Assembly: GCF_036507355.1 (NCBI RefSeq) | Contig: NZ_AP027877.1 | Reading direction: 5' to 3' (one strand) | Length of the DNA: 64,000 nucleotides | Source: Escherichia coli | GTDB lineage: Bacteria > Pseudomonadota > Gammaproteobacteria > Enterobacterales > Enterobacteriaceae | Part shown: positions 27,195 through 50,600 of the stretch, piece after piece | Position numbering within the stretch: the stretch's first letter is position 1 | Layout: every line of letters begins with the position of its first letter | Notes under the pieces: generated by a model | Told to the model about the DNA's origin: nothing | Databases searched by the model: none | The model's input: the letters and a program-made list of their open reading frames with translations, nothing else | Made by a program: the position numbers and the translations under genes

Positions 27195-28468
27195 TTAACT
27201 TCCCCTTGTGTCAACGCAATATCGCGATCATCGACCTTGATAGCCGTAATTTCGTTGTCGGATTCGCGGAAAAAGATCATGAACAGCACGGCGATAATGG
27301 CAATCATCACCGCGCCAAAAGTCCACATCCCGGACCAGTTGAAAGTCAGTCCGTTTACCGGTTCCTGATAAGCGAACATCTTTTCCATCATCACACCGCC
27401 AAGACGATAGCCGAGCAAACTGCCGAAGCCCTGGCAGCAGAGCGTGATCAGCCCCTGCGCAGCGGTACGCATATGCACGGGGGCTTTTTTATCGACATAG
27501 ATGTAAGCGGTAACGTAGTAAAAATCGTAACTTACGCCGTGAAGCAAAATACCGAGGAACAGTAACGCGTAGGTGAAATATTCATCCGCACTACCGTAAA
27601 TAAAGAAGCCATAGCGGATCGCAGCGGTGACCAGACCAAGCAATAATACCTTTTTGATACCAAAGCGTTTAGTGAAAAACGGTAATGCCAGCATAAAGAA
27701 TATTTCAGAGAACTGGCCGAGCGTCATCCAGCCGGTGGCGTTGTTCATGCCAACTTCGGTCAGATAACCGTTGGCAAAGATGTAATAGAACGCCAGTGGC
27801 ATCGCAAACAGGAATGAACAGAAGAAAAAGACGAGGAAGTTTTTATCGCGCAGTAGGATCAGCGCATCCAGGCCGAGCATGACTTTAATGTCCATTTTGC
27901 CGGTGCTTTTTGGCGGCGTGTCGGGCAGTAAAAACGCAAACACACCGAGCAGAGCAGAACTTCCGGCGGTAATCAGCAGCGGGATGTTAGTCGGTGAGAT
28001 ATCGGCATACCCCAGCATTTGCGGCAAGAAACCACATGCCAGACCAGAGGCAATCCAGCCGATAGTGCCCATCACACGAATGCGCGGGAAATCACGCTCC
28101 ACATCCGGCACGTTGGCAAAAGCGATACTGTTAGTCAGCGCAATGGTCGGCATATAGGTTAGCGAGTAGGCCAGCAGTAACGGGAAGAACCCGGCAAAAG
28201 TGGTCTGTTGCGCAGCGAAATACATCAGCAGCGCGCCTGCGAACATCAATACCGCCAGCACTTTTTGCGCCGAGAAAAAGCGGTCAGTGATGGAGCCAAC
28301 CAGAATTGGCGACAGGATCGCCGCAATGGCTGTGCAGGCATACGACCAGCCAATTTCTCCGGCACTAAAACCGCTTTTACTTAACCACAACCACAATGGC
28401 ACAAACCACGCGCCCCAGATAAACCATTCAACAAACATCATGAACGACAGCTTTGCTGTTGTTTTCAT
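27191..28468 (-). CDS. yegT: MFS nucleoside transporter
   Basis: 425 aa, polytopic membrane protein. Confidence 0.9.
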   Translation of the reverse strand: MKTTAKLSFMMFVEWFIWGAWFVPLWLWLSKSGFSAGEIGWSYACTAIAAILSPILVGSITDRFFSAQKVLAVLMFAGALLMYFAAQQTTFAGFFPLLLAYSLTYMPTIALTNSIAFANVPDVERDFPRIRVMGTIGWIASGLACGFLPQMLGYADISPTNIPLLITAGSSALLGVFAFLLPDTPPKSTGKMDIKVMLGLDALILLRDKNFLVFFFCSFLFAMPLAFYYIFANGYLTEVGMNNATGWMTLGQFSEIFFMLALPFFTKRFGIKKVLLLGLVTAAIRYGFFIYGSADEYFTYALLFLGILLHGVSYDFYYVTAYIYVDKKAPVHMRTAAQGLITLCCQGFGSLLGYRLGGVMMEKMFAYQEPVNGLTFNWSGMWTFGAVMIAIIAVLFMIFFRESDNEITAIKVDDRDIALTQGEVK

Positions 28469-28724
28469 CTTTTAATTCCTTCATGACAGGTAATGCAAGG
28501 TACGCGATGACAATACCACTTAATAATACCTTTTAAATACCTTTGCGGTGAAAACTTGACCGCGCTAACATTTTTTCTGATGAATCGAGCCAACAGAAAA
28601 CGCTGAAAAAACATCCAAAAGATGGAAAAACTCGCCCGTAACGACCAGGATTATGATTGCCCGCAAAAGGCGGGCCAGGACAATCCATAGCCGATATCCA
28701 ATCGGAATTTACGGGAGCATAGTA

Positions 28725-29777
28725 ATGACAGATATTGCACAGTTGCTTGGCAAAGACGCCGACAACCTTTTACAGCACCGTTGTATGACTATTCCTTCTG
28801 ACCAGCTTTATCTCCCCGGACATGACTACGTAGACCGCGTGATGATTGACAATAATCGCCCGCCAGCGGTGTTACGTAATATGCAGACGTTGTACAACAC
28901 CGGGCGTCTGGCTGGCACAGGATATCTTTCTATTCTGCCGGTTGACCAGGGCGTTGAGCACTCTGCCGGAGCTTCATTTGCTGCTAACCCGCTCTACTTT
29001 GACCCGAAAAACATTGTTGAACTGGCGATCGAAGCGGGCTGTAACTGTGTGGCATCAACTTACGGCGTGCTGGCGTCGGTATCGCGGCGTTATGCGCATC
29101 GCATTCCATTCCTCGTCAAACTTAATCACAACGAGACGCTAAGTTACCCGAACACCTACGATCAAACGCTGTATGCCAGCGTGGAGCAGGCGTTCAACAT
29201 GGGTGCGGTGGCGGTTGGTGCGACTATCTATTTTGGCTCGGAAGAGTCACGTCGCCAGATTGAAGAAATTTCTGCGGCTTTTGAACGTGCGCACGAGCTG
29301 GGCATGGTGACAGTGCTGTGGGCCTATTTGCGTAACTCCGCCTTTAAGAAAGATGGCGTTGATTACCATGTTTCCGCCGACCTGACTGGTCAGGCGAACC
29401 ATCTGGCGGCAACCATAGGTGCAGATATCGTCAAACAAAAAATGGCGGAAAATAACGGCGGCTATAAAGCAATTAATTACGGTTATACCGACGATCGCGT
29501 GTACAGCAAGTTAACCAGCGAAAACCCGATTGATCTGGTGCGTTATCAGTTAGCTAACTGCTATATGGGCCGGGCCGGGTTGATAAACTCCGGTGGTGCT
29601 GCAGGCGGTGAAACTGACCTCAGTGATGCAGTGCGTACTGCGGTTATCAACAAACGCGCTGGCGGAATGGGGCTGATTCTTGGACGTAAGGCGTTCAAGA
29701 AATCGATGGCTGACGGCGTGAAACTGATTAACGCCGTGCAGGACGTTTATCTCGATAGCAAAATTACTATCGCCTGA
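28725..29777 (+). CDS. fbaB: Class I fructose-bisphosphate aldolase
   Basis: 350 aa from [42 protein letters not shown]-track start 28653 is an upstream extension. Confidence 0.9.
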
Positions 29778-29802
29778 TGTGCTTTGTACGACCAGCACTG
29801 CC

Positions 29803-29840
29803 ACGTATGACGGATAAGGCGTTTACACTGCATCCGGCAT
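29803..29840. repeat. REP (repetitive extragenic palindromic) element
   Basis: GACGGATAAGGCGTTTACACTGCATCCGGCAT, matching the REP consensus. Confidence 0.6.
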
Positions 29841-29861
29841 AAAATAACGCGCACTTTGCTA

Positions 29862-29891
29862 CGGCTTCCCTATCGGGAGGCCGTTTTTTTT
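29862..29891 (+). terminator. Rho-independent terminator after fbaB
   Basis: Hairpin CGGCTTCCC-TATC-GGGAGGCCG followed by TTTTTTTT. Confidence 0.65.
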
Positions 29892-29953
29892 GCCTTTCAC
29901 TCCTCTAACAATTTTCATATTGTCGTTTTTGTGATCGTTATCTCGACATTTAA

Positions 29954-32152
<2,199 letters not shown>

Positions 32153-32161
32153 GGACGGTAT

Positions 32162-32614
32162 ATGACTAACCTGTTTGTTCGTAGCGGAATTTCTTTTGTC
32201 GATCGTAGCGAAGTTTTAACCCATATCGGTAATGAGATGCTCGCCAAAGGTGTGGTTCATGATACCTGGCCACAGGCATTAATTGCCAGAGAAGCAGAAT
32301 TCCCTACCGGGATAATGCTTGAGCAGCACGCCATTGCAATACCGCATTGTGAGGCGATTCATGCTAAGTCGTCAGCCATTTATCTGTTAAGGCCAACAAA
32401 TAAAGTTCATTTTCAGCAAGCGGATGATGATAATGACGTGGCGGTATCGTTGGTTATTGCGTTGATTGTGGAAAATCCGCAGCAGCAATTGAAACTTTTA
32501 CGCTGTTTATTTGGCAAGTTACAACAGCCCGATATCGTCGAGACACTAATCACTCTTCCTGAAACCCAGTTAAAGGAATACTTCACAAAGTATGTTTTAG
32601 ATTCAGACGAATAA
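32162..32614 (+). CDS. gatA: Galactitol PTS EIIA
   Basis: 150 aa. Confidence 0.9.
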   Translation: MTNLFVRSGISFVDRSEVLTHIGNEMLAKGVVHDTWPQALIAREAEFPTGIMLEQHAIAIPHCEAIHAKSSAIYLLRPTNKVHFQQADDDNDVAVSLVIALIVENPQQQLKLLRCLFGKLQQPDIVETLITLPETQLKEYFTKYVLDSDE

Positions 32615-32644
32615 ATCCCTCTGTAACAATAAAAAGGACTATTT

Positions 32645-32929
32645 ATGAAACGCAAGATTATTGTCGCTTGCGGAGGCGCGGTTGCGACCTCTACGATGGC
32701 GGCGGAAGAAATTAAAGAGTTGTGTCAGAGTCATAATATTCCTGTTGAATTAATCCAGTGTCGGGTTAATGAAATAGAAACCTATATGGATGGTGTGCAT
32801 TTGATATGTACCACTGCCAGGGTGGATCGTAGTTTTGGCGATATTCCGTTAGTTCACGGCATGCCTTTTGTTTCTGGTGTCGGTATCGAAGCATTACAAA
32901 ATAAAATTCTGACTATCTTACAGGGGTGA
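32645..32929 (+). CDS. gatB: Galactitol PTS EIIB
   Basis: 94 aa; Cys near N-terminus ([11 protein letters not shown]). Confidence 0.9.
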
Positions 32930-32932
32930 CCT

Positions 32933-34288
32933 ATGTTTTCAGAAGTCATGCGTTATATTCTCGACCTCGGCCCTACGGTGATGCTGCCGATTGTCATCAT
33001 AATTTTTTCTAAAATATTAGGCATGAAGGCAGGCGATTGCTTTAAAGCGGGTCTGCATATCGGGATTGGCTTTGTTGGCATTGGCCTTGTGATTGGCTTA
33101 ATGCTGGATTCCATTGGCCCGGTGGCGAAAGCGATGGCGGAAAATTTCGACCTGAATCTGCATGTGGTCGATGTCGGCTGGCCGGGCTCTTCACCAATGA
33201 CCTGGGCGTCGCAAATTGCGCTGGTGGCGATTCCGATTGCGATTCTGGTTAACGTGGCGATGTTACTGACCCGTATGACGCGGGTGGTAAATGTTGATAT
33301 CTGGAATATCTGGCATATGACCTTCACCGGCGCGTTGCTGCATCTGGCAACCGGTTCATGGATGATAGGGATGGCGGGTGTGGTAATTCACGCGGCGTTT
33401 GTTTATAAGCTCGGCGACTGGTTTGCCCGCGATACCCGAAATTTCTTTGAGCTGGAAGGCATTGCTATTCCGCACGGTACGTCGGCGTATATGGGGCCGA
33501 TTGCGGTGCTGGTCGATGCCATTATCGAGAAAATCCCAGGTGTTAACCGAATTAAATTTAGCGCCGACGATATTCAGCGCAAATTTGGTCCGTTTGGCGA
33601 GCCTGTCACCGTGGGTTTTGTGATGGGGCTGATTATCGGCATCCTCGCGGGTTACGATGTCAAAGGTGTATTGCAGCTGGCGGTAAAAACGGCGGCGGTG
33701 ATGCTGCTAATGCCACGGGTGATTAAACCCATCATGGATGGTTTAACGCCCATCGCTAAGCAGGCCCGTAGTCGTTTACAGGCGAAGTTCGGCGGTCAGG
33801 AGTTCCTGATTGGCCTGGATCCCGCATTACTGCTGGGGCATACGGCGGTGGTATCGGCAAGCCTGATTTTTATTCCGCTCACCATTTTAATTGCTGTTTG
33901 TGTTCCGGGTAATCAGGTACTGCCGTTTGGCGATCTTGCAACTATCGGCTTCTTCGTGGCGATGGCGGTCGCGGTGCATCGTGGAAATCTGTTCCGCACC
34001 TTAATCTCGGGTGTCATCATTATGAGCATCACCCTGTGGATCGCGACGCAAACTATTGGTTTGCACACCCAACTGGCGGCTAATGCTGGGGCGTTAAAAG
34101 CCGGGGGTATGGTGGCTTCAATGGATCAGGGCGGTTCTCCCATTACCTGGTTACTGATTCAGGTTTTCTCCCCGCAAAATATTCCCGGTTTCATTATTAT
34201 CGGCGCAATTTATCTTACCGGTATTTTCATGACCTGGCGTAGAGCGCGTGGCTTTATTAAACAAGAGAAAGTCGTTCTCGCAGAATAA
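32933..34288 (+). CDS. gatC: Galactitol PTS EIIC permease
   Basis: 451 aa, polytopic membrane protein. Confidence 0.9.
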   Translation: MFSEVMRYILDLGPTVMLPIVIIIFSKILGMKAGDCFKAGLHIGIGFVGIGLVIGLMLDSIGPVAKAMAENFDLNLHVVDVGWPGSSPMTWASQIALVAIPIAILVNVAMLLTRMTRVVNVDIWNIWHMTFTGALLHLATGSWMIGMAGVVIHAAFVYKLGDWFARDTRNFFELEGIAIPHGTSAYMGPIAVLVDAIIEKIPGVNRIKFSADDIQRKFGPFGEPVTVGFVMGLIIGILAGYDVKGVLQLAVKTAAVMLLMPRVIKPIMDGLTPIAKQARSRLQAKFGGQEFLIGLDPALLLGHTAVVSASLIFIPLTILIAVCVPGNQVLPFGDLATIGFFVAMAVAVHRGNLFRTLISGVIIMSITLWIATQTIGLHTQLAANAGALKAGGMVASMDQGGSPITWLLIQVFSPQNIPGFIIIGAIYLTGIFMTWRRARGFIKQEKVVLAE

Positions 34289-34335
34289 TTTTTACCTGAG
34301 GGGGAGGTTATCCCCCTTAACAATCAGGAGTTTTT

Positions 34336-35376
34336 ATGAAATCAGTGGTGAATGATACTGATGGTATCGTGCGCGTTGCAGAAAGCGTCATTCCTGAAAT
34401 TAAACATCAGGATGAGGTGCGGGTAAAAATTGCCAGCTCGGGCTTATGTGGTTCCGATTTACCCAGGATATTTAAAAATGGTGCACATTATTATCCAATA
34501 ACGTTAGGCCATGAATTTAGCGGCTATATTGATGCGGTAGGATCCGGTGTTGATGATTTACACCCTGGCGATGCGGTTGCCTGTGTGCCGTTATTACCCT
34601 GTTTTACTTGTCCAGAGTGTTTGAAAGGGTTTTATTCCCAGTGCGCAAAATATGATTTTATTGGCTCACGGCGTGATGGAGGATTTGCCGAATATATTGT
34701 CGTTAAGCGAAAAAATGTCTTTGCTCTACCCACGGATATGCCTATTGAGGATGGGGCTTTTATTGAGCCGATTACCGTTGGCCTGCATGCTTTTCATTTA
34801 GCGCAAGGTTGTGAGAATAAAAACGTTATTATTATTGGTGCCGGAACCATTGGCCTGCTGGCTATTCAGTGCGCTGTCGCGCTGGGAGCAAAGAGTGTGA
34901 CGGCGATCGACATTAGCTCAGAAAAACTGTCACTGGCAAAATCTTTCGGTGCGATGCAAACATTTAACAGTAGCGAAATGAGCGCGCCGCAAATGCAGGG
35001 GGTTTTACGCGAGCTGCGCTTTAATCAGCTTATCCTCGAGACGGCTGGCGTACCGCAAACTGTCGAACTGGCGGTAGAGATTGCCGGTCCTCATGCCCAA
35101 CTGGCGCTGGTGGGCACGTTGCATCAGGATCTGCATTTAACATCGGCAACGTTTGGCAAAATATTGCGTAAAGAGTTGACGGTTATCGGCAGTTGGATGA
35201 ACTACTCCAGCCCTTGGCCAGGGCAGGAGTGGGAAACGGCGAGCCGGTTGCTGACAGAACGTAAGTTAAGCCTGGAGCCATTAATCGCTCACCGTGGAAG
35301 CTTTGAATGCTTCGCCCAGGCGGTGCGTGACATCGCTCGTAATGCTATGCCGGGCAAAGTGTTGCTCATTCCCTGA
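34336..35376 (+). CDS. gatD: Galactitol-1-phosphate 5-dehydrogenase (Zn-dependent MDR family)
   Basis: 346 aa; zinc-ADH motifs (GHEFSGY, CxxCxxC) and GxGxxG NAD fold. Confidence 0.9.
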   Translation: MKSVVNDTDGIVRVAESVIPEIKHQDEVRVKIASSGLCGSDLPRIFKNGAHYYPITLGHEFSGYIDAVGSGVDDLHPGDAVACVPLLPCFTCPECLKGFYSQCAKYDFIGSRRDGGFAEYIVVKRKNVFALPTDMPIEDGAFIEPITVGLHAFHLAQGCENKNVIIIGAGTIGLLAIQCAVALGAKSVTAIDISSEKLSLAKSFGAMQTFNSSEMSAPQMQGVLRELRFNQLILETAGVPQTVELAVEIAGPHAQLALVGTLHQDLHLTSATFGKILRKELTVIGSWMNYSSPWPGQEWETASRLLTERKLSLEPLIAHRGSFECFAQAVRDIARNAMPGKVLLIP

Positions 35377-35475
35377 AACCGCGGGCCAGCGTGATGCTGG
35401 CCCGGTATTGTGCAAAACAGATCATTCACCAATGGTCCCCCTTCGTTTACACTAGCCACAATTGAATATGGGTAA

Positions 35476-36255
35476 ATGACGATGAATTCATTCGAGCGAA
35501 GGAATAAGATCATCCAATTAGTGAATGAACAGGGAACCGTGCTTGTTCAGGATCTGGCGGGAGTATTTGCTGCCTCGGAAGCGACAATCCGTGCCGATTT
35601 GCGCTTTCTCGAACAAAAAGGCGTGGTTACGCGCTTTCATGGCGGTGCGGCGAAAATAATGTCCGGTAATAGTGAAACCGAGACCCAGGAAGTCGGGTTT
35701 AAAGAGCGATTTCAGCTCGCCAGCGCGCCAAAAAACAGAATAGCGCAGGCGGCAGTCAAAATGATCCACGAAGGGATGACCGTTATTCTCGACAGCGGAA
35801 GTACGACAATGCTTATCGCCGAAGGATTAATGACCGCCAAAAATATCACGGTGATTACCAACAGTCTCCCGGCAGCGTTTGCCCTTTCCGAAAATAAAGA
35901 CATTACTCTGGTCGTCTGTGGTGGCACGGTCCGCCATAAAACGCGCTCGATGCATGGTTCCATTGCCGAGCGTTCATTGCAGGATATTAATGCCGATTTA
36001 ATGTTTGTCGGTGCTGATGGTATTGATGCGGTTAATGGTATTACGACCTTTAATGAAGGTTATTCGATTAGCGGGGCGATGGTCACCGCCGCAAATAAAG
36101 TGATTGCCGTTCTCGATTCATCGAAATTTAATCGTCGCGGTTTTAATCAGGTACTGCCAATCGAAAAAATTGACATTATTATTACCGATGATGCCGTGTC
36201 AGATGTGGATAAACTGGCATTGCAGAAGACACGGGTAAAATTAATTACGGTGTAG
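35476..36255 (+). CDS. gatR: DeoR-family repressor of the gat operon (intact here)
   Basis: 259 aa; N-terminal HTH and C-terminal DeoR sugar-binding domain; uninterrupted, unlike K-12 where an IS3 splits gatR (from memory). Confidence 0.85.
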   Translation: MTMNSFERRNKIIQLVNEQGTVLVQDLAGVFAASEATIRADLRFLEQKGVVTRFHGGAAKIMSGNSETETQEVGFKERFQLASAPKNRIAQAAVKMIHEGMTVILDSGSTTMLIAEGLMTAKNITVITNSLPAAFALSENKDITLVVCGGTVRHKTRSMHGSIAERSLQDINADLMFVGADGIDAVNGITTFNEGYSISGAMVTAANKVIAVLDSSKFNRRGFNQVLPIEKIDIIITDDAVSDVDKLALQKTRVKLITV

Positions 36256-36264
36256 TATTGTTCT

Positions 36265-36300
36265 GTATGCCGGATAAGGTGTTTACACCGCATCCGGCAT
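36265..36300. repeat. REP element
   Basis: GTATGCCGGATAAGGTGTTTACACCGCATCCGGCAT. Confidence 0.6.
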
Positions 36301-36336
36301 TACGGATTCTCCCTGGTTCAAGAGAGAATAGTTTGA

Positions 36337-37236
36337 TTAACGCAATAATGGACAATCTGGTGGTAATCGACAACGCAACGCCGCCGGAAGTATTTCAATA
36401 TGGAAGTTTTGCCCACTCAACGGTTCGCCATCAAGATTAAAAGTGATTTCGTGTGGGGCTTGTATATCAAACCACGACGAAGCGCCTTCGATAATATTCG
36501 GGTTATCTTCGTCAGATTTTAAGGTTGATACGAGAGCCGGAAGAATTTCATCGCCGGTAAAAATGCGCAGTTGCAGCAAGCCATCGTTAATTAACGCGTT
36601 CGGGCACAATTGTTGACCGCCACCGGCCTGACGCCCGTTACCAATACCAATGACCAGGGCGTCACCTTGCCAGTGAAAGTTTTCACCGCGGATTTCACAA
36701 CGGTCCGGTTGCAGAGTATCCATGCGCATTAAGCCATGAATGATGTAAGAGACGCCACCCAGCGCGGCTTTTAATTTTTCCGGCGTTTCTGTGGTAATAC
36801 GCGTCCCAAATCCGCCTGTCGCCATATTAATAAAACAGGTTTGTTTGTTGACCTGCGCCATATCTATCGCAATGGCGTTACCGGCAATTGCCAGTTTCAG
36901 CGCCTTATCCAGTGCCTCAGGAATCCCTACACTGGTGGCAAAATCATTGGCGGTTCCTAATGGCAAAATTCCCAGCGCGGGTATGTCATCCCCCTCACAC
37001 TGAATCAACGCCGTAGAAACTTCATTAATGGTGCCATCGCCACCACCGGCAATCACCGTTGCGACGCCCAACTTCCGGGCCTCCTCTACATATCGTGCGG
37101 CATCGCCTTTCTCCCAGGTGACCCGCACATGGATCGTCATTCCTTCCTCACGCAACAGCATAATTGCTTCGCGCAATGGTAAATTGTCAGTACTTTTGCC
37201 ATTAAGAATCAGTAAGCTGGCGGGAAATTCTGCCAT
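36337..37236 (-). CDS. yegS: Lipid kinase YegS (DAG-kinase catalytic domain family)
   Basis: 299 aa; GGDGT motif. Confidence 0.9.
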
Positions 37237-37641
37237 GATCGTATGTGCCTTTATGATTGGTCTGTAGATAGTGTAGAGCAGAAAAGAAAAGGTGGAGTCA
37301 GAACAGGATGAAAGTCGGAGGATAAATAGTCAGTTCAAGTATGGAGGATTCAGTGGTTACCACCAGGAGCTTGCAATGGGGACAGCGAATACTAACGGCA
37401 GCCACCGATAAATTTCAAAAAAGAGCATATACCTAATATTCAACTAAACAGTGGCATCTTCAATATAATATATTAAAGCCTCCATGGAGTTACCCGGAAG
37501 GGCCTCCATGTCCGTAATTCCTACTTATGTAGGAAATGTTGTACAGAACATTTATTATAATCCTATTCAATTATAATAATCATGCCATTATTATATTTAA
37601 ACACTAGAGAGTGTCGTTGGTATTTAATGGGGGAAGGTGAG

Positions 37642-37959
37642 GTGAACAAGATAGCTGCTATATCATTAATTAGTGTTTTTCTTATGTCTGGTTGTGCTGT
37701 GCATAATGATGAGACAAGTATCGGTAAATTTGGTCTTGCATATAAAAGTAATATTCAGCGTAAACTCGATAATCAATACTACACCGAAGCCGAAGCTTCT
37801 TTAGCCAGGGGCAGAATTTCTGGTGCAGAAAATATAGTAAAAAATGATGCAGCCCATTTCTGTGTTACTCAGGGCAAAAAAATGCAGATAGTTGACCTGA
37901 AGACAGAAGGTGCAGGATTACATGGCGTCGCTCGTCTGACATTCAAATGTGGAGAGTGA
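37642..37959 (+). CDS. yegR: Small lipoprotein-like protein YegR
   Basis: Probable GTG start (VNKIAAISLISVFLMSGCAV lipobox); ORF-track start 37582 is an upstream extension. Confidence 0.6.
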   Translation: MNKIAAISLISVFLMSGCAVHNDETSIGKFGLAYKSNIQRKLDNQYYTEAEASLARGRISGAENIVKNDAAHFCVTQGKKMQIVDLKTEGAGLHGVARLTFKCGE

Positions 37960-38117
37960 GAATATTTTTTGGTAAGCGCCAAACATGCGCGTTCTGGTTG
38001 TGCTTAGCCGGAACCTGTGCGAGCACGATGCCGTTACGTGAAAGGCATCGTGCTATGAAGGGAGATTCTATCGATGTGGTCAATGGAAGACGGTGACCAG
38101 GGATAGGGCTTATGCAT

Positions 38118-38204
38118 AAAAAATAAGCCCGTGTAAGGGAGATTACACAGGCTAAGGAGGTGGTTCCTGGTACAGCTAGCATTTTATGGGTTATGTTTTT
38201 CAGC
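38118..38204 (-). ncRNA. cyaR: Hfq-dependent sRNA CyaR (RyeE)
   Basis: Reverse complement reads GCTGAAAAACATAACCCATAAAATGCTAGCTGTACCAGGAACCACCTCCTTAGCCTGTGTAATCTCCCTTACACGGGCTTATTTTTT, which matches CyaR as I remember it, including the terminator hairpin and U-tail. Confidence 0.85.
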
Positions 38205-38288
38205 GAAACGGATGATAACCTTAATAAATGCAGCTGTATGTGATCGGTTTCTAAGAATTTTCCATCCGGGAAAAATAATCGAAATTAA

Positions 38289-39650
38289 TCACTTACCGTG
38301 TGGGTTACGCGTGGTTTCCCCGGAGAAATTACGCATCAGCAGCGCGTAATTTAGCTCAAGATCCTGCGGCACCGGGAGCCACACAGTATAACCATCGCCT
38401 GGTGCTACCGGCATAGCTTCGCCTTTGGCGTTTTCCATGTGCTCAAGGGTAAAGTTAATGTTGCCTTGCGGCGTCATCAGCTCAAGGCTGTCGCCAACGG
38501 AGAATTTATTTTTCACCGCTACCGCCGCGAGGTCCCCCTTGCGCTCACCGGTAAACTCACCAACAAACTGCTGGCGGTCAGAAACTGAATAACCGTATTC
38601 GTAGTTCTGATAATCGTCGTGAGTATGACGACGCAGAAATCCTTCGGTGTAACCACGATGCGCCAGACCTTCCAGAGTTTCCAGCAGGCTGGTATCGAAC
38701 GGTTTTCCCGCAGCGGCGTCATCGATAGCTTTGCGGTAAACCTGTGCGGTGCGTGCGCAATAGTAGAAAGATTTAGTACGGCCTTCGATTTTCAGCGAAT
38801 GCACGCCCATTTTGGTCAGGCGTTCTACATGGGCGATGGCGCGCAGATCTTTCGAGTTCATGATGTAAGTGCCGTGCTCATCTTCAAACGCGGTCATATA
38901 CTCGCCCGGACGCTGGGCTTCTTCGATCATAAACACTTTGTCGGTTGGCGCGCCAATACCAAGCGTAGGCTCAACGTTTTGCACCGGAATCGGCTCGTAC
39001 TTGTGTACGATGTTGCCGACGTCATCTTCTTTACCTTCCTGTACGTTGTACTCCCAGCGGCAGGCATTGGTGCAGGTTCCCTGGTTCGGGTCGCGTTTGT
39101 TAATGTAGCCCGAGAGCAGGCAGCGACCGGAGTAGGCCATGCACAGTGCGCCGTGAACGAAGATCTCGATCTCCATATCCGGCACCTGATTGCGGATCTC
39201 TTCAATCTCTTCCAGCGACAGCTCGCGAGAGAGGATCACGCGGGTCAGGCCCATTTGCTGCCAGAATTTCACCGTCGCCCAGTTTACGGCGTTAGCCTGC
39301 ACCGAGAGGTGGATCGGCATTTCAGGGAAGTGCTCACGCACCAGCATAATCAGCCCTGGATCGGACATAATCAGCGCATCCGGCCCCATTTCCACCACCG
39401 GTTTCAGGTCACGGATAAAGGTTTTCAGCTTGGCGTTGTGCGGGGCAATGTTGACCACGACATAAAACTTTTTCCCCAGCGCGTGGGCTTCATTGATGCC
39501 GAGCTGAAGATTTTCGTGGTTGAATTCGTTGTTGCGCACACGCAGGGAGTAACGCGGCTGGCCCGCATAAACAGCATCTGCGCCATAAGCGAAAGCGTAA
39601 CGCATATTTTTCAGCGTTCCCGCCGGGGAAAGGAGTTCCGGTTTAAACAT
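38289..39650 (-). CDS. yegQ: U32-family peptidase-like protein YegQ
   Basis: 453 aa. Confidence 0.9.
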   Translation of the reverse strand: MFKPELLSPAGTLKNMRYAFAYGADAVYAGQPRYSLRVRNNEFNHENLQLGINEAHALGKKFYVVVNIAPHNAKLKTFIRDLKPVVEMGPDALIMSDPGLIMLVREHFPEMPIHLSVQANAVNWATVKFWQQMGLTRVILSRELSLEEIEEIRNQVPDMEIEIFVHGALCMAYSGRCLLSGYINKRDPNQGTCTNACRWEYNVQEGKEDDVGNIVHKYEPIPVQNVEPTLGIGAPTDKVFMIEEAQRPGEYMTAFEDEHGTYIMNSKDLRAIAHVERLTKMGVHSLKIEGRTKSFYYCARTAQVYRKAIDDAAAGKPFDTSLLETLEGLAHRGYTEGFLRRHTHDDYQNYEYGYSVSDRQQFVGEFTGERKGDLAAVAVKNKFSVGDSLELMTPQGNINFTLEHMENAKGEAMPVAPGDGYTVWLPVPQDLELNYALLMRNFSGETTRNPHGK

Positions 39651-39752
39651 AATTCTCTCGTTCTGATGACAGGTCAGATCCGCTTCACCTGATGAAGCGG
39701 TTAGGGGAGTGCCCCCACTTTAAGGGCGGGCATTGTAGCGCAATCGGCGGGT

Positions 39753-40049
39753 TTAGCTCCAGTGTAAATGTCTGGTGGCGTCCTGGTTTTGGTTAAGGAT
39801 ACGAATGACGATAATTTCCCCTGGTGATTGCAGGAAATAAATTACGTGGCGTTCAAAAGGAAGAACAAAAATACCTTCGCCTAATTCAGGTCTGGGCGTA
39901 CCTATATTATTGTTACTCAGAATCTGGAGAACGTCTGAAAGATGTTCCACATATCTGTCGGCTTGTGGTTCGCCGAAATGGTGATAACTGTAATACCAGA
40001 TGCCTTCTAAATCCTCATTGGCTTTTGGCATGAGTTTAATAATACGCAC
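39753..40049 (-). CDS. ParE/RelE-superfamily toxin (ParE-like)
   Basis: 98-aa ORF MRIIKLMPKANEDLEGIWYYSYHHFGEPQADRYVEHL...IVIRILNQNQD; 1-bp gap to the upstream antitoxin gene. Confidence 0.7.
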   Translation of the reverse strand: MRIIKLMPKANEDLEGIWYYSYHHFGEPQADRYVEHLSDVLQILSNNNIGTPRPELGEGIFVLPFERHVIYFLQSPGEIIVIRILNQNQDATRHLHWS

Positions 40050-40050
40050 A

Positions 40051-40302
40051 TTATTTCCTTATCCCTGCTTTCACCTTCCGTAAAAACGCGTCCTTTTCCC
40101 ACGGCTGAGCTTCACCACTACTCAACCCTTCTGCAAGCATGTCACGTAACGCTTGCAGGCGAGACTCTGCTTGCTTTTCTCGAAGTAAGCGCAGTGACTC
40201 ACGGATCACTTCGCTTTGGGTGCGATAGTCGCCGGATTCAATTAAGGACTCGATAAATTCACGCAACTCATCGCCGAGATCAACCGTCATCGTTCTGGCC
40301 AT
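40051..40302 (-). CDS. ParD-like (ribbon-helix-helix) antitoxin
   Basis: 83-aa ORF MARTMTVDLGDELREFIESLIESGDYRTQSEVIRESLRLLREKQ; immediately upstream of the toxin. Confidence 0.7.
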   Translation of the reverse strand: MARTMTVDLGDELREFIESLIESGDYRTQSEVIRESLRLLREKQAESRLQALRDMLAEGLSSGEAQPWEKDAFLRKVKAGIRK

Positions 40303-40352
40303 GTTTATGCTCTCCTGTAAGTAAAAATCTTACATCAGTGTATGTCATAAAC
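40303..40352. promoter_or_regulatory. Nested inverted repeats upstream of the parD-like gene (candidate autoregulatory operator)
   Basis: GTTTATG...TGTAAG-TAAAAAT-CTTACA...CATAAAC directly upstream of the antitoxin start. Confidence 0.35.
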
Positions 40353-40544
40353 CGGATAGCGTCACGAAAGTATTAGAAGATATTTTGGCAGATGAACATG
40401 TTCAGGAGGATAAGCATGGAGATGTTAAACAAAGAAAGCACAATGAGTATTCATCAGTGTCCACTATTTTAATGGCGCAGGTAAATAAATAAGCGTTATT
40501 TGGAAATAAAGCCGGACGCCAACAACCCACGCCCGGCATCGTAA

Positions 40545-40877
40545 TTACGTATTGTCTTTCACCGTCTGGCTTGTGCCATTGGCTTTAACGGAGGCAATTC
40601 CGGTTTCACGAGATTGCGCGGTGGCATACATCTGGCTGGAGCCGATAATTTGATGATTGGCGGCTTTCAGATTGAAATAGAATTTGCCGTTGCTTGCCGT
40701 TTTTTTCTCATAGCGTTCTTCTTGCGGGCTGTTGCTACGCACCGACGCGATGCCCTTTTCCGCAGAGGCTTTTGAGGTATACAGCTCGCTGGTGAGGATA
40801 GTCTCACCATTGCCCGCTTTTAGCACAAACCGGAACTGATTATCACTGCTCTTACTGAGTTCAAACCAACCAGCCAT
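40545..40877 (-). CDS. yegP: Small conserved protein YegP (tandem-repeat protein, function unknown)
   Basis: 110 aa from MAGWFELSKSSDNQFRFVLKAGNGE with an internal repeat (GKFYFNLKAANHQIIGSSQMY). Confidence 0.85.
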   Translation of the reverse strand: MAGWFELSKSSDNQFRFVLKAGNGETILTSELYTSKASAEKGIASVRSNSPQEERYEKKTASNGKFYFNLKAANHQIIGSSQMYATAQSRETGIASVKANGTSQTVKDNT

Positions 40878-41067
40878 AATGACTCCTTGATTGAAATTGC
40901 TTATCGAAAACAGCATCTAAAGGTGCTGTTTACCGATTAAAGTATGAGCGATTTTCTGATGCCTGCCAGGGCGGAGAGATAATGTCAGTTTGCTGACCAT
41001 GCGTGGGATAATGTTGCCGGATCTGGTCTGAACGCCATCTCCGGCTAACAAAATAATGTCGCTAAAA

Positions 41068-41790
41068 CTAAACGATGCGGCAGGCGTCGGCTTCCCAGCG
41101 GTAACCGACGCCGTAAACGGCGCGGATAAATGACTGTTCGGCGTCGAGAGATTCCAGCTTGCGGCGCAGGTTTTTAATGTGGCTGTCGATGGTGCGGTCG
41201 GTTACTACGCGGTAGTCGTCATAAAGATGATTGAGCAATTGCTCGCGGGAGAACACTTTTCCTGGTTCGTGAGAGAGCGTTTTCAGCAGACGAAATTCCG
41301 CAGGCGTCAGGTCAAGCATTTTACCGCGCCATGAAGCCTGAAAACGACCTTCGTCGATAATCAACGGGCTTTCAGCATCCTGTTGCTGCAACTCGCGCTG
41401 CGGTTTGCAACGGCGCAAAATGGTTTTGACGCGCGCTACCACTTCCCGTGGGCTGTACGGCTTACAGATATAATCATCTGCGCCAATCTCCAGTCCGAGC
41501 AGGCGGTCGATCTCTTCGATTTTTGCCGTGACCATCACGATAGGAATGTCAGAAAAACGACGAATTTCCCGGCACAGCGTCAAGCCATCGGTGCCAGGGA
41601 GCATCAGATCCAACAGGATCAGATCCGGTGGTGTCTGGCGCACATACGGCAGTACCTGATCGCCGTGGCTGATAAGCGTCGGCGCATAGCTCGCAGCACG
41701 CAGATAATCAATGAGCAACTGCCCCAGCTTCGGTTCATCTTCCACGATCAAAATACGCGGTGTGTTTTCGTCGATTGGTAACTCGGTCAT
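41068..41790 (-). CDS. baeR: OmpR-family response regulator BaeR
   Basis: 240 aa; receiver domain plus winged-helix; 4-bp overlap with baeS. Confidence 0.95.
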
Positions 41791-43190
41791 ACTTCTCTCT
41801 GTAAATCCCGTTCCAGCGGTAACTCTACTGTAATGCTTACCCCGCCAAAAGGCGAATGGGCGGCAATAATGCGGCCATTATGTGCTTCAACAATGTTCAG
41901 GCAAATCGCCAGCCCCAGCCCGGAACCGCCGCTGGCGCGGTTGCGGGAACCTTCGGTGCGATAAAAACGTTCAAACAATTTTTGTAGCTGATCGTCACTG
42001 ACACCTGGCGCACTGTCGGCAAAGGTCAGGCGCACCGTTTTGTCGTGCTGCTCGGCAGAGATTTTCAGGCTGCCGCCGCTGTCAGTGTAGCGCAGGCTGT
42101 TTTCCAGTAAGTTATTGAATAACTGCATTAAACGGTCGCGATCGCCAAATACGGTGATACTGTCTGGCAGGGAAAATTGCAGTTTCAGGCCACGGCTGGC
42201 AAATCGTTCGCGAAATGCGCCGCCCGCCACTTCCAGCAGTGGGATCAAATCTACCGGTGCTTTTTGATAGGCGAGAGCGCCTTCATCAGACATCGACAAC
42301 TGATGGAGATCGTCAACCAGTTTGGTCAGTGTACCGACCTCCGCCTGTAAAGACGCCACCGTCTCCGGCGTGAATTTACGCACGCCATCCTGAATGGCTT
42401 CCAGTTCACCGCGCAGCACTGCTAATGGCGTACGCAGTTCGTGAGAAATATCGGCCATAAAATCGCGCCGCATTTGCTGGTTTTTCTCCAGCGTGCTGGC
42501 GAGCTGGTTGAAGTCTTGCGCCAGTTTGCCCAGTTCATCTTCACTGGTGGGCGTTACGCGGGTAGTGAAATCGCCCGCCGCCAGTTTGTGCGTGCCATCG
42601 ACAAGTCGTTTTACCGGTGCCAGTAAACCGCGCGCTAGCAGAAAAGTGGCGAGTGCCGCGAGTAACGTTGCCAGGGCGACAATCAGCCAGCTGGTTTGCC
42701 GTTGTTGTTTATCGAAATTGATATCAGTATTGCGGGTCAGCCGCTCAACGGGGGAGGCAATCACCGCGCCCACTTCCGCACCGTTGACCAGAATGGGTCG
42801 CCGTGTACCGTCAGGTGGAATCGGCGCTCGCGGACCAACCAGCACCTTGTTGTTTTGATCAACCACCCAGAACTGAGTACGCCAGCCGTGTGGTGGCATA
42901 CCCGGGCCGGGTTTATCTTCCGAATTATCGTGTTCAAATGAACGCAGGATCTGAAAGACAAAGCGATCATTGTTGCGCAGGAAGCGCCAGTTGCCATGCT
43001 GCGCATACTGCTCGCCAAGCGCATCACTTAACAGTTGTAATCGCTGTTCATTACCATGCTTGATGTAATCAATAAAGCCACGCTCAAAACTGATACGCAC
43101 CGCCCAGTGCATACTGATCAGCAAGACAATGCAGGTGGCGAAAATCGCCAGAAACAGTTTGCCGGTAATACCAGGTCGCCAGAACTTCAT
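41787..43190 (-). CDS. baeS: Sensor histidine kinase BaeS
   Basis: 467 aa; H-box SHELRTPL, HATPase domain. Confidence 0.95.
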
Positions 43191-44602
43191 TGCGCGCTCC
43201 TTTTTCGCCGCGAAATAGCTACATTTTGATGCGTATCGTTCGGCACTCTGGCAAAGATGAACGCCGGAAGGGCGATGATAAACGCCATGCTAAGCCAGGT
43301 GTACATAAAGACGGTTTGTGTGGTGCTGCTGTCGACGCTGACATGCTGCGAACCAAAAAGTCCCAGCAACAGCCCGGCGATGGTGACGCCGATACTCATC
43401 GACAATTGCATAATCATCGACAGCAGACTGTTGCCGCTGCTCGCCAGATTGTCCGGGAGATCTTTCAGCGTCAGGGTGTTCATGGAGGAGAAACGGGTCG
43501 AGTTGACCATCCCTTGTAAAAACAGGACGAACGGCAAAACGTAGTACCAGCCCAACAGAGCGGTAGTCATAAACAACAGGGTGACCAGCGACAGACCCAG
43601 CGTGGTCGCTACCAGTACCCGACGATAACCAAAGCGATTCACCACCTGTACAACAATCCGCTTCATCCCCATGCTGCCAAGCACCATCGGGATCATCATC
43701 AGTCCGGCATGAAACGGTGAGAAGCCAAGGCCAATTTGCAGGAAAACCGGTGTCATAAAGGGCAACATGCCACTGCCAATACGTCCGGCAAAGCTCCCCG
43801 CCAGGCCCAGCGAAAAGGTACGAGTACGGAACAGTTTCAGACTGAACAGGGCACGGTTGTTATTTCTGGCGTGCAGCAGATAAAGCACCAGTGCCACCAC
43901 GCCAACTGCGACCAGGCCAGCAATCGCCAGCGGCGATAAACCTGTACCTTTACTGCCGTCCAGCGCCAGGGTTAATACCGCCATGCCAACCGCCAGCAAC
44001 AGAAAGCCGGAGAGATCAAAGCGCCGCGTCTGCATGGTATAGTTCGGCATTAACATCAATGTGGCGATCGCACCAATAATTCCCACCGGAATGTTGATCA
44101 AAAAGATCCAGTGCCACGACGCGTACTCCACCAGCAGACCGCCAAGCGCCGGACCGAGCAGCGGACCGACCTGACCGGGTAACGTGACAAAGGTCATCGC
44201 CGCCATATATTGCTCGCGCGGTACGATTTTCATCACCGTCAACCTGCCGACCGGCACCATCATCGCACCGCCCACGCCCTGTAACGCGCGTGCCAGCAAC
44301 AGTTCGTTCAGCGTGCCGGAAAGCGCGCAAAACAGTGAACCGAGAGTAAACAGCATGATGGCGGTAAAGAAAATATTGCGCACGCCGACTTTGTCCGCCA
44401 GCCAGCCGCTGGCGGGCAGCATCACCGCCACGGTCAGTACATAAGAGACAATAACCATGTGCATATGCAACGGACTTTCCCCGAGGCTTTGCGCCATTGA
44501 GGGAAGGGCGGTGTTTACGATGGTGGTGTCCAGCGACTGCATAAAGAAGCCGAAAGCCACAATCCACAATTGCCAGCGGGTGCTGTCGGGAAGATCTGTC
44601 AT
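43187..44602 (-). CDS. mdtD: MFS transporter MdtD
   Basis: 471 aa, polytopic. Confidence 0.9.
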
Positions 44603-47600
44603 TTACTCGGTTACCGTTTGTTTAGGTTTACGCGAAAAACGCAGCCGCAGACGGTCGAAAAAGAGATACACCACCGGCGTGGTATACAGCGTCAGGAGCT
44701 GGCTCATTACCAGACCGCCGACAATGGTGATCCCCAATGGTTGGCGCAACTCCGAGCCGTCACCGCCCGACAACACCAGCGGCAGCGCGCCAAACAGCGC
44801 CGCCAGGGTAGTCATCATAATCGGGCGAAAACGCAGCAGACAGGCCTGGAAAATAGCTTCCTGCGGCGTCAGGTTACCGTGCCGTTGGGCTTCGAGCGCA
44901 AAATCGACCATCATAATGGCGTTTTTCTTCACGATGCCGATTAATAGCATGATCCCTATCAGGGCGATTAGGCTGAACGGGGCATTGAACAGCTCCAGCG
45001 CCAGCAGCGCTCCAACGCCCGCCGAGGGCAGGGTGGAGAGAATCGTCAGCGGATGTACGTAACTCTCGTAAAGGATACCCAGCACGATATACACCGTAGC
45101 GATGGCGGCGATAATCAGGATCACCTGCGAGTTCATCGTCTCCTGGAACACCTGCGCCGTGCCGGCAAAACTACCGCGCACCGTCGAAGGCACACCAAGC
45201 TGGGTCATTGCGCGATCGATCGCCGCACTGGCGTCCGAGAGCGATTTTCCGGTCGGCAGGTTGAACGAGATGGTCGAGGCCGCCGATAATCCCTGATGAT
45301 TCACCGACAGCGGGGCATTCGCCGGTTGCCATTTAGCGAAATACGACAGCGGGATCGCTTTGCCTTCGTTATTGATAACGAACATTTTTTCCAGCGCGCT
45401 GATGTCCTGGGTATAGCGCGGATCCACTTCCATCACCACTTTATACTGGTTCATCGGCTGGTAAATGGTCGAGATTTGCCGCTGACCGAAGGCGTTATTT
45501 AACAGACTGTTGGCGGCCTGTACGTCGATTCCCAGCCGTGCCATGGTGTCGCGGTCGTAAACCAGATTCATCTCCGCGCCGTTATCTTGCTGATCGGAGT
45601 TCACGTCCGCCAGTTCCGGCAACGTCGCCAGTTTTTTGCGGATTTTCGGCTCCCATTCGCGCAGTGCCGCCAGGTCGTCGGATAACAACGTGTACTGGTA
45701 GCTGGCGTTCGACTGACGCCCACCAACGCGAATATCCTGTACCGCCATCAGGAACAGATTCGCCCCCGGTTCTTTCGCCAGCTTCACGCGCAGACGGTCG
45801 ATAATTTGCTGCGCCGTTTCGCTGCGTTCGTCGCGTGGCTTGAGGGTGATAAACATCATCCCGCTGTTCACTCGCGAACCGCCGGTAAATCCGGTGACAT
45901 TATCCACTGCCGGATCGTCACGGATAATTTTCATGAAATCCTGCAACTTACCGCGCATCGCCTGAAACGAAATACTCTGATCCGCCTGAATCCCGCCCAT
46001 CAACACGCCAGTGTCCTGCTCCGGGAAGAAGGTTTTCGGGATCGAGATATATAGCCAGATATTCAGCGCAATGGTGCCAAGCAGCACCACGCCCACCAGA
46101 CGGGTATGATTGAGCACCCATTTCAGTGACTTGCCGTAGCCTTGTTGCAGGGCTACCAACATGCGACCAAAACCACGTAGTCGCTTTTGCTCGCGCGGCT
46201 TGCTGGCTTTCAGCATCCAGCCACACATCATCGGCGTTAGCGTCAGGGAAACCAGCAACGAAATACCAATGGCGACAGAAAGCGTTACGGCAAACTCGCG
46301 TAACAGACGCCCCGGCAATCCGCCCATCAACAGCAGCGGCAGGAACACCGCCACCAGTGACAGACTCATCGACAGCACCGTAAAACCGACTTCGCGAGTA
46401 CCTTGTAGCGCGGCCTGTAGTGGTTTCATCCCCGCTTCCAGATGACGGGCAATGTTTTCCAGCACCACGATGGCGTCATCCACCACAAAGCCTGTGGCGA
46501 TGGTGAGCGCCATTAACGACAGGTTATTGAGACTGAATCCGCACAGGTACATCGCCGCAAACGTACCAATCAGCGAAACCGGCACCGCAACGGCGGGAAT
46601 AATAGTGGCGCGACCCGAGCGCAGGAATAAAAACACCACCAGAATCACCAGCGCCACCGAGATAATCAGCGTTTGCTCGACTTCTTCCAGCGAGGCGCGA
46701 ATGGTGGGGGAGCGATCCTGAGCAATTTGCAGATCAATCGCCGCCGGAATGGTTTCCTGCAACTCCGGTAATTTTGCCCGGATGCTGTCAACCGTCTGGA
46801 TAATATTGGCTTCCGGCAGCTTGCGGATCATCAGCAAAATAGCCGGTTTGGCGTTGGTCATCCCGGCGTTGCGCACATCCTGCACTGAGTCGGTCACCGT
46901 CGCCACATCGCCCAGACGAACCGCGCCGCCGTTGTTGTAGTGAATAATCAGCGGCTGATATTCAGCGGCGGTTTTCAGTTCATCGTTGGTCTGGATCTGC
47001 CAGCGGTGAGTGCCATCTTCCAGCGCCCCCTGCGGTTTACGCACGTTGGCATTGCTGATGGCAGTGCGTACGTCGTCCAGCGACACGCCCTGATTAAACA
47101 GCGCCTGCGGGTTCAGCCCGACGCGCACGGCGGGCAGCGAGCTGCCGCCGACATCGACATCACCGACGCCGTCGATTTGCGAAATCGTCGGAGCCAGCTG
47201 CGTCGAGGCGAAATCGTACAATTCACCCTGCGAATAAGTATCGGAGGTTAGCGTCAGGATCATAATTGGCGCATCCGACGGGTTCGCTTTGCGATAAGTC
47301 GGGCGGCTGGGCATCCCACTGGGCAGCAGACTTTGTGCGGCGTTGATCGCCGCCTGCACATCACGCGCCGCACCGTTGATATCCCGGTCAAAATCAAACT
47401 GCAAAATAATACGCGTGCTGCCGAGCGAACTGCTGGAGGTCATTTCACTGACCCCGGCAATGCGCCCAAGTGAACGCTCCAGCGGCGTGGCAACGGAAGA
47501 CGCCATTGTCTCCGGCGACGCACCGGGCAGCGAGGCGCTGACCATAATCACCGGAAAATCGACCTGCGGCAGCGGGGCGACCGGCAGCATACGGAAACCC

Positions 47601-47680
47601 AGTATGCCGCACAGGGTAATGGCGACCGACAGTAAAATCGTCGCCACCGGGCGGTAAATGAAGAGGGCAAAAAACTTCAC
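44603..47680 (-). CDS. mdtC: RND multidrug efflux pump subunit MdtC
   Basis: 1025 aa RND permease. Confidence 0.95.
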
Positions 47681-50600
47681 TTACGCCTCCTCTTCATGGC
47701 GAGCAAAGCGACTTTTGGTCCACAATGCAAGGCGGTCGAACAGCAGATAAATCACTGGCGTGGTAAACAGCGTCAGTACCTGGCTGACAACCAGACCACC
47801 GACCATACCAATGCCTAACGGACGACGCAGTTCCGCGCCGACCCCGGTACTCAACATCAGCGGCAGCGCGCCAAGCAGAGCCGCCAGGGTGGTCATCAGG
47901 ATCGGACGAAAACGCAACAGACAAGCCTGGTAGATTGCATCGCGCGGCGACATGCCTTGCTCGCGCTCAGCAGCCAGCGCGAAGTCGATCATCATGATGG
48001 CGTTCTTCTTCACGATACCGATCAGCAAAATAATGCCGATAATCGCAATCACATCCAGTTCGCTACCGGCAATCATTAACGCCAGCAGGGCGCCAACACC
48101 TGCCGTGGGTAGCGTCGAGAGAATGGTGATCGGGTGAATAAAGCTCTCGTACAGAATGCCGAGCACGATATACATCGCCACCACCGCCGCGACAATCAGC
48201 CAGACAGTGCTGCCCAGCGCCGACTGGAAGGCGAGGGTGCTGCCCTGGAACTGCGTGGTGATATCCACCGGCAGATTCAGCGTCTTTTCGGTGTCCATAA
48301 TCGCCTGCACCGCATCGCCCAGCGAATAGTTATCTGGCACGTTAAAAGAGATGGTCGTTACCGGGAACTGATCCAGATGGTTGATGGAAAGCGGCGCAAA
48401 ACGCTGTTCAACTTTGGCAATTGAGCTTAACGGCACCACGCCGCCGTCGCTGCTGGTCAGGCGAATGGTATCCAGCGCCGCGAGGCCTGGGGTATTTTCG
48501 GTATTGTGCTCCAGCACTACGCGATACTGGTTAGCCTGAGTATAAATAGTGGAAATCAGTCGCTGACCAAACGCGTTGTACAGGGCGTTATCGACATCCG
48601 CCATGCTGATCCCCAGACGGCTGGCGCTGTCGCGATCAACATTGACATACGCCACCAGCCCTTTGTCCTGCCAGTCGCTGGAGACATCAGAAATCTGTGG
48701 CAGCTGCTGGAGTTTTTCCATCAACTGTGGCACCCAGGTACTGAGCGCATCTAGTGACGTGGCCTGCAAGGTAAACTGGTACTGGGTGCGGCTGACCTGA
48801 GTATCGATGGTCAGGTCCTGCGTTGGTTGCAGGAAGAGATCGACGCCCGGCACTTTATCCACCGCCGTTTGCAGACGGGCGATGACTTTTTGCACTCGAT
48901 CATCACGTTCATCCAACGGTTTGAGGTTGATCTGCAAACGCGCACTGTTCAGCGACGGGTTAGTGCCATCAACGCCAACAAATGAGGTCAGATTTTGCAC
49001 TGCCGGATCCTGCAAAATCACGTCCGCGACCTGGCGTTGCCGCTGGGCCATATTGGCAAAGGAGCTGGATTGCGGTGCCTGCAAAGTGCCCTGAATAATG
49101 CCGTTATCCTGTACCGGGAAGAAACCTTTCGGAATGAACATCCACAATAGAACGCTAAGCAGCAGCGTGCTGAGCGCCACGCTTAAGGTCAGCCACGGAT
49201 GATTCAGCACTTTCGCAAGTCCCTGACCATAGGCGGCGATTATCCTGTCGAACATTTTTTCCGAGGCACGGGAGAAGCGGTTCTGTTTACGCAACGACTC
49301 CTGGCTGAGCATCCGTGCGCACATCATCGGTGTCAGGGTTAGCGACACCACGGCTGAGATTAAAATCGCTACCGCCAGGGTAATAGCAAATTCGCGGAAC
49401 AGTCGCCCGACGATATCGCCCATAAACAGCAGTGGGATCAACACCGCAATCAGCGAGAAGGTCAGCGAGATAATGGTAAAGCCGATTTCACCTGCGCCTT
49501 TGAGCGCCGCCGCCAACGGTTTTTCGCCTTTTTCGATATAGCGGGAAATATTTTCGATCACCACGATGGCGTCATCGACCACGAACCCGGTGGCGATAGT
49601 TAACGCCATCAGCGTCAGGTTATTGATTGAAAAATCGAGAAACACCATAACCGCAAAAGTGCCGATTAACGACAGCGGCACGGCAACACCGGGAATGATG
49701 GTCGCCGGAATATTGCGCAAAAACAGGTAGATAATCATGACTACCAGCGCGATAGCCATCATCAGCTCAAACTGGGTATCGTCGACGGATGCGCGGATAT
49801 TGGTGGTGCGGTCAGAAAGTACCGTCACCTTCACCGATTTCGGCAGACTCTCGGTAAGCTGCGGCAGCATCTGCCGAATACTGTCGGCGGTAGAGATAAT
49901 GTTAGCACCAGGCTGGCGCTGAACATTCATCACAATAGCCTGTTCTTTATTCGCCCACGCCCCAAGCCAGCCGTTTTCGGCCCCTTGTTCAACGGTTGCG
50001 ACATCACCAAGACGAATCGGCGCGCCGTTCTGGTAGGCGATGATTAGCTGGCGATACTCTTCGGCGGATTGCATCTGGTCGTTAGCGGAAAGCGTGACCG
50101 CGCGGGAAGGGCCGTCGAGGCTACCTTTGGCTGAGTTAACGTTAGCACCGGTAATGGCGGTGCGCACGGTTTCGCTGGTCAGGCCGAGGGCGGCAATCGC
50201 CTGGGCGTTAAGTTTGACGCGAACAGCCGGACGCTGGCCGCCGGAAAGCGTCACCAGGCCGACGCCGGAAATCTGCGAGATTTTCTGCGCGACGCGGGTT
50301 TCCACCATATCTTCCACTTGCGTCATCGGCATGGCTGTTGAGGTGACGGCGAGCGTCATGATCGGCGGATCTGCCGGGTTCACTTTGCTGTAAACCGGCG
50401 GGTTAGGCAGATCGCTCGGCAACAAGTTGGTCGCAGCGTTAATCGCGGCCTGTACTTCCTGCTCGGCGACATCCAGCGGTAATGTTAGCTGGAACTGCAA
50501 AGTGATAACTGACGCACCGCCGGAACTTTGCGACGACATCTGTTTCAGACCAGACATCTGCCCGAACTGGCGTTCGAGCGGCGCGGTAACGGCAGAGGTC

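Follow-up and report, generated by a model that had tools for sequence, protein, structure and literature searches.

Phages that enter the 3' ends of tRNA, tmRNA and sRNA genes carry a replacement 3' end. The site at the end of the sRNA gene cyaR is one that we take to be locI, the preferred P2 site of Escherichia coli C, and locI has reportedly been described as the preferred site of P2 (Barreiro & Haggard-Ljungquist, J Bacteriol, 1992). The gene ryeE (= cyaR) is already known as a phage target and is listed among the sRNA integration targets (Bobay et al., 2013, PMC3603311, citing Wassarman, 2001). A paper on SdsR (PMC3333887) was set aside as a source on this site, as it concerns a different sRNA locus, and literature searches for ogrK/yegZ, PR-X or a P2 remnant returned nothing useful. 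A vacant P2 site at the cyaR end is already known, and the locus described here has it in its commonest state. The locus lies in a stretch of 64,000 nucleotides of E. coli DNA, the whole of which is referred to as the window.

The attachment core at the end of cyaR

The features of the interval and of its borders are collected in Table 1. The neighbourhood reads gatR, yegS, yegR, cyaR, yegQ, a ParDE pair, yegP and baeR, which is the order of the E. coli chromosome, reversed relative to K-12. The 318-bp yegR CDS is annotated at the same place in UTME-3, EC958 and K-12 and is called a lipoprotein in some RefSeq records.

Table 1. Features of the yegR-yegQ interval and its surroundings, in window coordinates
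Feature	Position	Strand	Description	Basis or remark
Possible decayed second att core	37324..37350	+	17/27 to the core	called by identity count
yegR	37642..37959	+	105 aa, orphan small protein	left border of interval
yegR-yegQ spacer	37960..38288		329 bp	ORF list
Inverted repeat	38022..38054		perfect 11 bp, 11-nt loop, no T-run	read from sequence
Decayed P2-type Int P-arm region	38057..38105	+	homologous to P2 24279..24327	
Predicted attB core	38118..38144	+	27/27 identical to P2 attP core	very probably an unoccupied P2 integration site
cyaR (ryeE) sRNA gene	38121..38206	-		Rfam RF00112
cyaR intrinsic terminator stem-loop	38126..38153	-	11 pairs, 6-nt loop	terminator scan
yegQ/trhP	38289..39650	-	453 aa, peptidase U32 family, tRNA U34 hydroxylation	right border of interval

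CyaR is complete, scoring 100.7 bits against the Rfam model (gathering score 47, E = 1.5e-19, model positions 1-85 of 85), and it is the sole RNA gene found by Rfam in the spacer. Its terminator stem is followed by a T-run (38116..38125; tail TATTTTTTAT), and the 82 bp upstream of the gene are nearly identical to K-12. The inverted repeat nearer to yegR is kept in alignments with K-12 and Escherichia sp. MOD1-EC7003 and was not called as a terminator by the terminator scan.

The attP core is annotated in the P2 genome (NC_001895, 24356..24382, 'attP' and 'Int attP core'), and this 27-mer, AAAAAATAAGCCCGTGTAAGGGAGATT, occurs once in the window. Comparison of P2 with the window by blastn gave a match of 28/28 at the core (one extra T; E = 5.6e-7), and no other similarity at E <= 1e-3 was found between P2 and the 64 kb. 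Being the sole P2 similarity at that threshold, the attP match is not a matter of chance. The core takes in the cyaR terminator from its loop through the 3' arm to the T-run, and the last 24 nt of cyaR lie inside it. In EC958, a B2 strain, a single SNP was found in the core (C13T, window 38130, leaving 26/27), which converts a G-U pair of the cyaR terminator to A-U. For annotation purposes, the 27 nt can be labelled P2 attB.

Several differences of the surroundings were recorded on the side. The gatR gene (35476..36255) is an intact ORF of 259 aa in the window and a two-piece pseudogene in the annotation of K-12 MG1655, where it constitutes a second K-12-specific lesion less than 3 kb from the yegR-yegQ spacer. 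Between yegQ and yegP (spacer 39651..40544) the window encodes a ParE toxin (98 aa) and a ParD antitoxin (83 aa) at 39753..40302, and the same spacer in K-12 measures only 146 bp. It is shared by 1,843 of 5,423 complete E. coli genomes; of the matches listed, only 266917_2 is 100% identical to the window over this cassette, the other listed carriers being about 96% identical, and in UTME-3 the antitoxin is frameshifted. Over 22 kb (28000..50000), the best complete RefSeq E. coli genome is 98.7% identical and none reaches 99%, indicating that the source strain lies outside that collection or that the region is mosaic. Short pieces match different strains best, for instance UTME-3 over yegR-yegQ (99.8%) and 266917_2 over the ParDE spacer (100%).

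Empty and occupied states of the site

In K-12 MG1655 (NC_000913.3) the order is trhP, cyaR, the cryptic prophage PR-X and yegR. PR-X is annotated at 2167183..2167811 and contains ogrK and the pseudogene yegZ, with cyaR at 2167114..2167200. The sequence-only reading had given the K-12 order as cyaR, ogrK, yegZ, yegR, in agreement with the RefSeq annotation of MG1655, and had set against it a spacer of about 330 bp that contains cyaR in the window, which the measured length and the full-length sRNA gene bear out. The alignment with K-12 that it had proposed showed that the K-12 interval is not equally short, the trhP-yegR spacer being 959 bp there and 329 bp in the window. The block structure was taken from an affine-gap alignment (a MAFFT alignment misplaced the gap) and consists of two collinear blocks and one K-12-only stretch of 630 bp, which falls between window 38123 and 38124, the exact cut being ambiguous within a short repeat. 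These 630 bp are 96.6% identical to P2 23742..24361, the D-ogr-attP end of the phage, a region that runs from the 3' end of gene D through ogr with its terminator, the Int P arm and the IHF site to the first bases of the attP core. The core next to cyaR is full in K-12, and the one next to yegR is reduced to ACACGGGCTTATTTTTTT, fused to the D fragment. Neither an ogr homologue nor a D fragment was found between cyaR and yegR in the window by the ORF list, by blastn with P2 or by the alignment, and no phage-derived genes were found between 37960 and 38288.

A complete P2-like prophage occupies the same position, between yegR and yegQ, in the O157 strain 180-PT54. Its genes run from integrase, C and cox through the tail genes to D and ogr, and an exact core stands at either end of the prophage, the two being 31,960 bp apart. 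The sequences outside these cores are the two flanks of the window, and those just inside are the flanks of P2 attP. This layout is that of attB x attP giving attL + attR, and it marks the window as the attB form. P2 integrase would exchange strands within the 27-nt core, that is, within the 3' half of the cyaR terminator and the T-run. Integration would thereby put the prophage between cyaR and yegR and regenerate the end of cyaR, because attP has the same 27 nt; int would then adjoin yegR, and D-ogr would adjoin cyaR. The 3' end of cyaR is indeed rebuilt unchanged in lysogens and in K-12. K-12 itself would be the descendant of such a lysogen, in which a later deletion, with one end within the yegR-side core and the other within gene D, would have left the 630-bp ogrK-yegZ stub. 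The window strain has neither prophage nor stub.

The states of the site were counted in complete E. coli genomes. A 101-bp probe that crosses the core and reaches into the flank on either side is matched without a break in 4,204 of 5,422 genomes (77.5%), which are classed as unoccupied. A probe made of prophage arm, core and cyaR is whole in 1,215 genomes (22.4%), which are classed as occupied; 358 of these have the K-12-type stub junction, the listed ones being K-12 laboratory derivatives, and the approximately 857 non-K-12 occupied genomes are classed by one junction, 180-PT54 being the one full lysogen inspected. The unoccupied and the P2-arm classes sum to nearly all genomes. With 77.5% of the genomes empty, K-12 is the exception and the empty state is ordinary. 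Two metagenome-assembled contigs, labelled Collinsella sp. and Citrobacter sp. (L019 and L016), also carry E. coli-type P2-like prophage junctions at cyaR/yegR; their yegR and gatR are 98% and 99.6% identical to those of the window, and they look like E. coli contigs binned into wrong genomes.

The identity of the sequences, the structure of the junctions and the frequency of each state in the population are direct observations, and on these grounds the interval is very probably the vacant bacterial attachment site of P2 and related phages. The suggestion of the sequence-only reading that this strain represents the unoccupied state agrees with the single exact core and with the lack of phage DNA between the flanks. 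It is improbable, by comparison, that the lineage once had a P2-like prophage or a K-12-type stub and then lost it, which would make the empty site secondary. Precise excision by Int/Cox would regenerate exactly the sequence of the window, and with about 22% of E. coli genomes occupied, gain and loss must be frequent. Nevertheless, the K-12 stub has a truncated yegR-side core and cannot excise precisely, no scar is visible at the site, and the empty state, found in 77.5% of the genomes across distant lineages, is most simply ancestral. We infer that precise excision is not how the site came to be empty. An assembly artefact, or a deletion of the remnant peculiar to this strain, can be practically dismissed as the cause of the short interval: nothing was found in favour of either, the K-12 alignment has both flanks collinear up to the core with cyaR intact, and the 101 bp over the core recur with 100% identity in many complete genomes that are independent of each other. 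If the interval is indeed a vacant attB, P2-type integrase would be expected to use it in the window strain, and P2-type phages should be able to lysogenise the strain at the site that they prefer.

Arm relic and possible older occupant between yegS and the core

Among the weak blastn matches between P2 and the window, one is exact over 15 nt and pairs window 38071..38085 with the Int P-arm site annotated in P2. The resemblance extends over the arm region of Table 1, which has the strand and the side of the core that the arm has in attP. Its local alignment score is 23, against 9.1 +/- 1.5 (maximum 17) in 2000 shuffles, and sensitive blastn gave 76% identity over 50 nt. When 37237..38117 was compared with P2 and with the O157 prophage by sensitive blastn and tblastx, the arm relic was the only similarity found.

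Longer forms of the relic exist in other genomes. An exact-core scan of species-representative genomes returned 11 loci. In MOD1-EC7003 (L024, 595..660) the flank retains the arm site together with the IHF-site region, in 64 nt against 63 in P2 and in register with the core, with an arm score of 26.5 against 9.1 +/- 1.5 in shuffles. In E. coli M160133 (L033, approximately 1258..1325) a long form is retained that is identical at 50 of 68 positions to the arm in the living O157 prophage; this form ends in the 17 nt ttcattgaattacgcat, where the prophage has ttcattgtattacgcgt. The window, K-12 and EC958 share a short form, which is 17 nt shorter. Judged from these alignments, the sequence adjoining attB is evidently old phage arm DNA. 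'Unoccupied' accordingly applies only with regard to recent P2-type elements, the flank itself carrying an arm fossil of about 50 nt of P2 type.

A search of phage databases with the flank was of no help in this respect. Only two matches were obtained, both of them prophage-derived records: ON470606.1 (L012), which includes gatR, yegS and yegR, and AY639599.1 (L013), a K-12-like stub in which yegQ is labelled 'putative protease'. Since both include host DNA, they give no information on a phage origin of the flank. The length of the spacer also varies in a manner unrelated to P2 occupancy. An AT-rich block of 170 bp directly follows the yegR stop (window 37963/37964) in 948 genomes, including the B2 strains CFT073, UTI89 and EC958 (L002, 1883..2052 in EC958), and is absent from the window and from K-12; it occurs as one copy per genome and is not a repeat element. 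In addition, about 306 bp (window 37687..37992) are missing from E. coli FDAARGOS_1077 (L034), which has lost the 3' portion of yegR along with the adjoining end of the spacer and retains the arm relic and the core.

How far the old phage DNA reaches to the left is less certain. The whole segment of about 800 bp that contains yegR (37324..38117) may be the nearly erased remnant of an ancient P2-type element at the same core, a reading to which we give slightly less than even credence. The limits of such an element would be a decayed core on the left and, on the right, the decayed P arm together with the perfect core, which would have stayed perfect because it is the cyaR terminator. The arm homology in the right place and orientation, and the longer in-register relics with the IHF-site region in MOD1-EC7003 and M160133, are consistent with this. 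A 27-mer at the left boundary matches the core at 17 of 27 positions in the window, and at 18 in K-12 and 21 in MOD1-EC7003. Among non-core sites, only 4 of 127,948 window positions have at least 17/27 and none at least 20/27 by full-length identity counts, which were used in place of a local-alignment tile scan in which 19% of the tiles score as high as the left site. The left site was, however, found post hoc and has only 17/27 in the window. Against an ancient element also stands the rest of the segment, since sensitive blastn and tblastx show nothing in 37237..38056, yegR included, that resembles P2 or the O157 prophage.

Comparison with other genomes bears on the same boundary. In CP089930.1, labelled E. 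coli E69, the yegS DNA is only about 87% identical to the window; there the region upstream of yegS, which matches the window to 37317, is joined after 7 nt to a true core (L015, 2527..2560), yegR and the flank (the equivalent of window 37318..38117) being missing. The true core of E69 thus sits where the window has the left core-like site, as would be expected of a genome that never received the segment. E69 could equally be a secondary deletion, the 6-7 nt before the left core-like site differ between E69 and the window, and it is the single such genome found: its direct yegS-to-core junction occurs in 0 of 5,426 complete E. coli genomes, the one near-full match consisting of two pieces about 500 bp apart. 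In four species of Kluyvera, yegS and cyaR-yegQ are also neighbours, with 750-830 bp between yegS and the core, and the same slot is filled with toxin-antitoxin pairs, which are of two different kinds and stop 15-20 nt short of the core (L017, L018, L020 and L022); this speaks for the ancient element. As read from the translations, a RelE/HigB-like killer is paired with an HTH antidote in three species, and K. cryocrescens encodes HicA/HicB; K. intermedia has a P2-type arm at the core. Decayed second cores were also sought at the left edge of the Kluyvera cassettes, and the best candidates (14-17/27), lying inside coding sequence, were unconvincing.

The gene yegR itself gives mixed indications. 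It is AT-rich (39% GC against 49% for the whole window), an orphan essentially confined to E. coli and Shigella, with a few patchy homologues of 48-59% identity in unrelated places, one of them among transposases in an IS-rich island. A Pfam scan of the window's YegR gave no family at E <= 0.01, and PF27694 (YegR) is listed only in precomputed domain annotations of homologues and of the called gene. These traits speak for the ancient element, but no distant YegR homologue was found beside P2-type genes. YegR also matches PHROG 21109 (E = 3e-72); this was discounted as evidence of a phage gene, as the match probably stems from prophage records with wrong boundaries and would be an annotation artefact. 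As part of the ancient-element interpretation, yegR could be a cargo gene that was gained by horizontal transfer and left behind in the chromosome, which we regard as plausible though a little short of probable. The ancient-element interpretation is compatible with the assignment of the interval as an unoccupied attB and is nested inside it. If it is true, the cyaR terminator would be a repeated landing pad across Escherichia and Kluyvera.

Comparison with known integration sites

The arm fossil and the possible decayed second core are small additions, and the identity of the locus is unchanged by them. They may serve as a worked example of how a prophage fades into a bacterial-looking flank while its att core survives, because the core doubles as the terminator of an sRNA. 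The K-12 gene order at cyaR is the derived state, a textbook difference between K-12 and most E. coli. Compared with PR-X of K-12, the window has the same chromosomal site and the same flanking sequence, whereas neither the 630 bp derived from P2 nor the truncated second core is present in it. In P2-like prophages of other strains at cyaR, int points towards yegR and ogr towards cyaR. With the P2 attB described at the 3' end of cyaR/ryeE, the window shares the site between yegQ/cyaR and yegR, and nothing is different at the core. As in phage integration into the 3' ends of tRNA, tmRNA and sRNA genes generally, the core likewise covers the terminator hairpin and the T-run of an RNA gene; here, however, the target is the terminator of an Hfq-dependent sRNA and not a tRNA.
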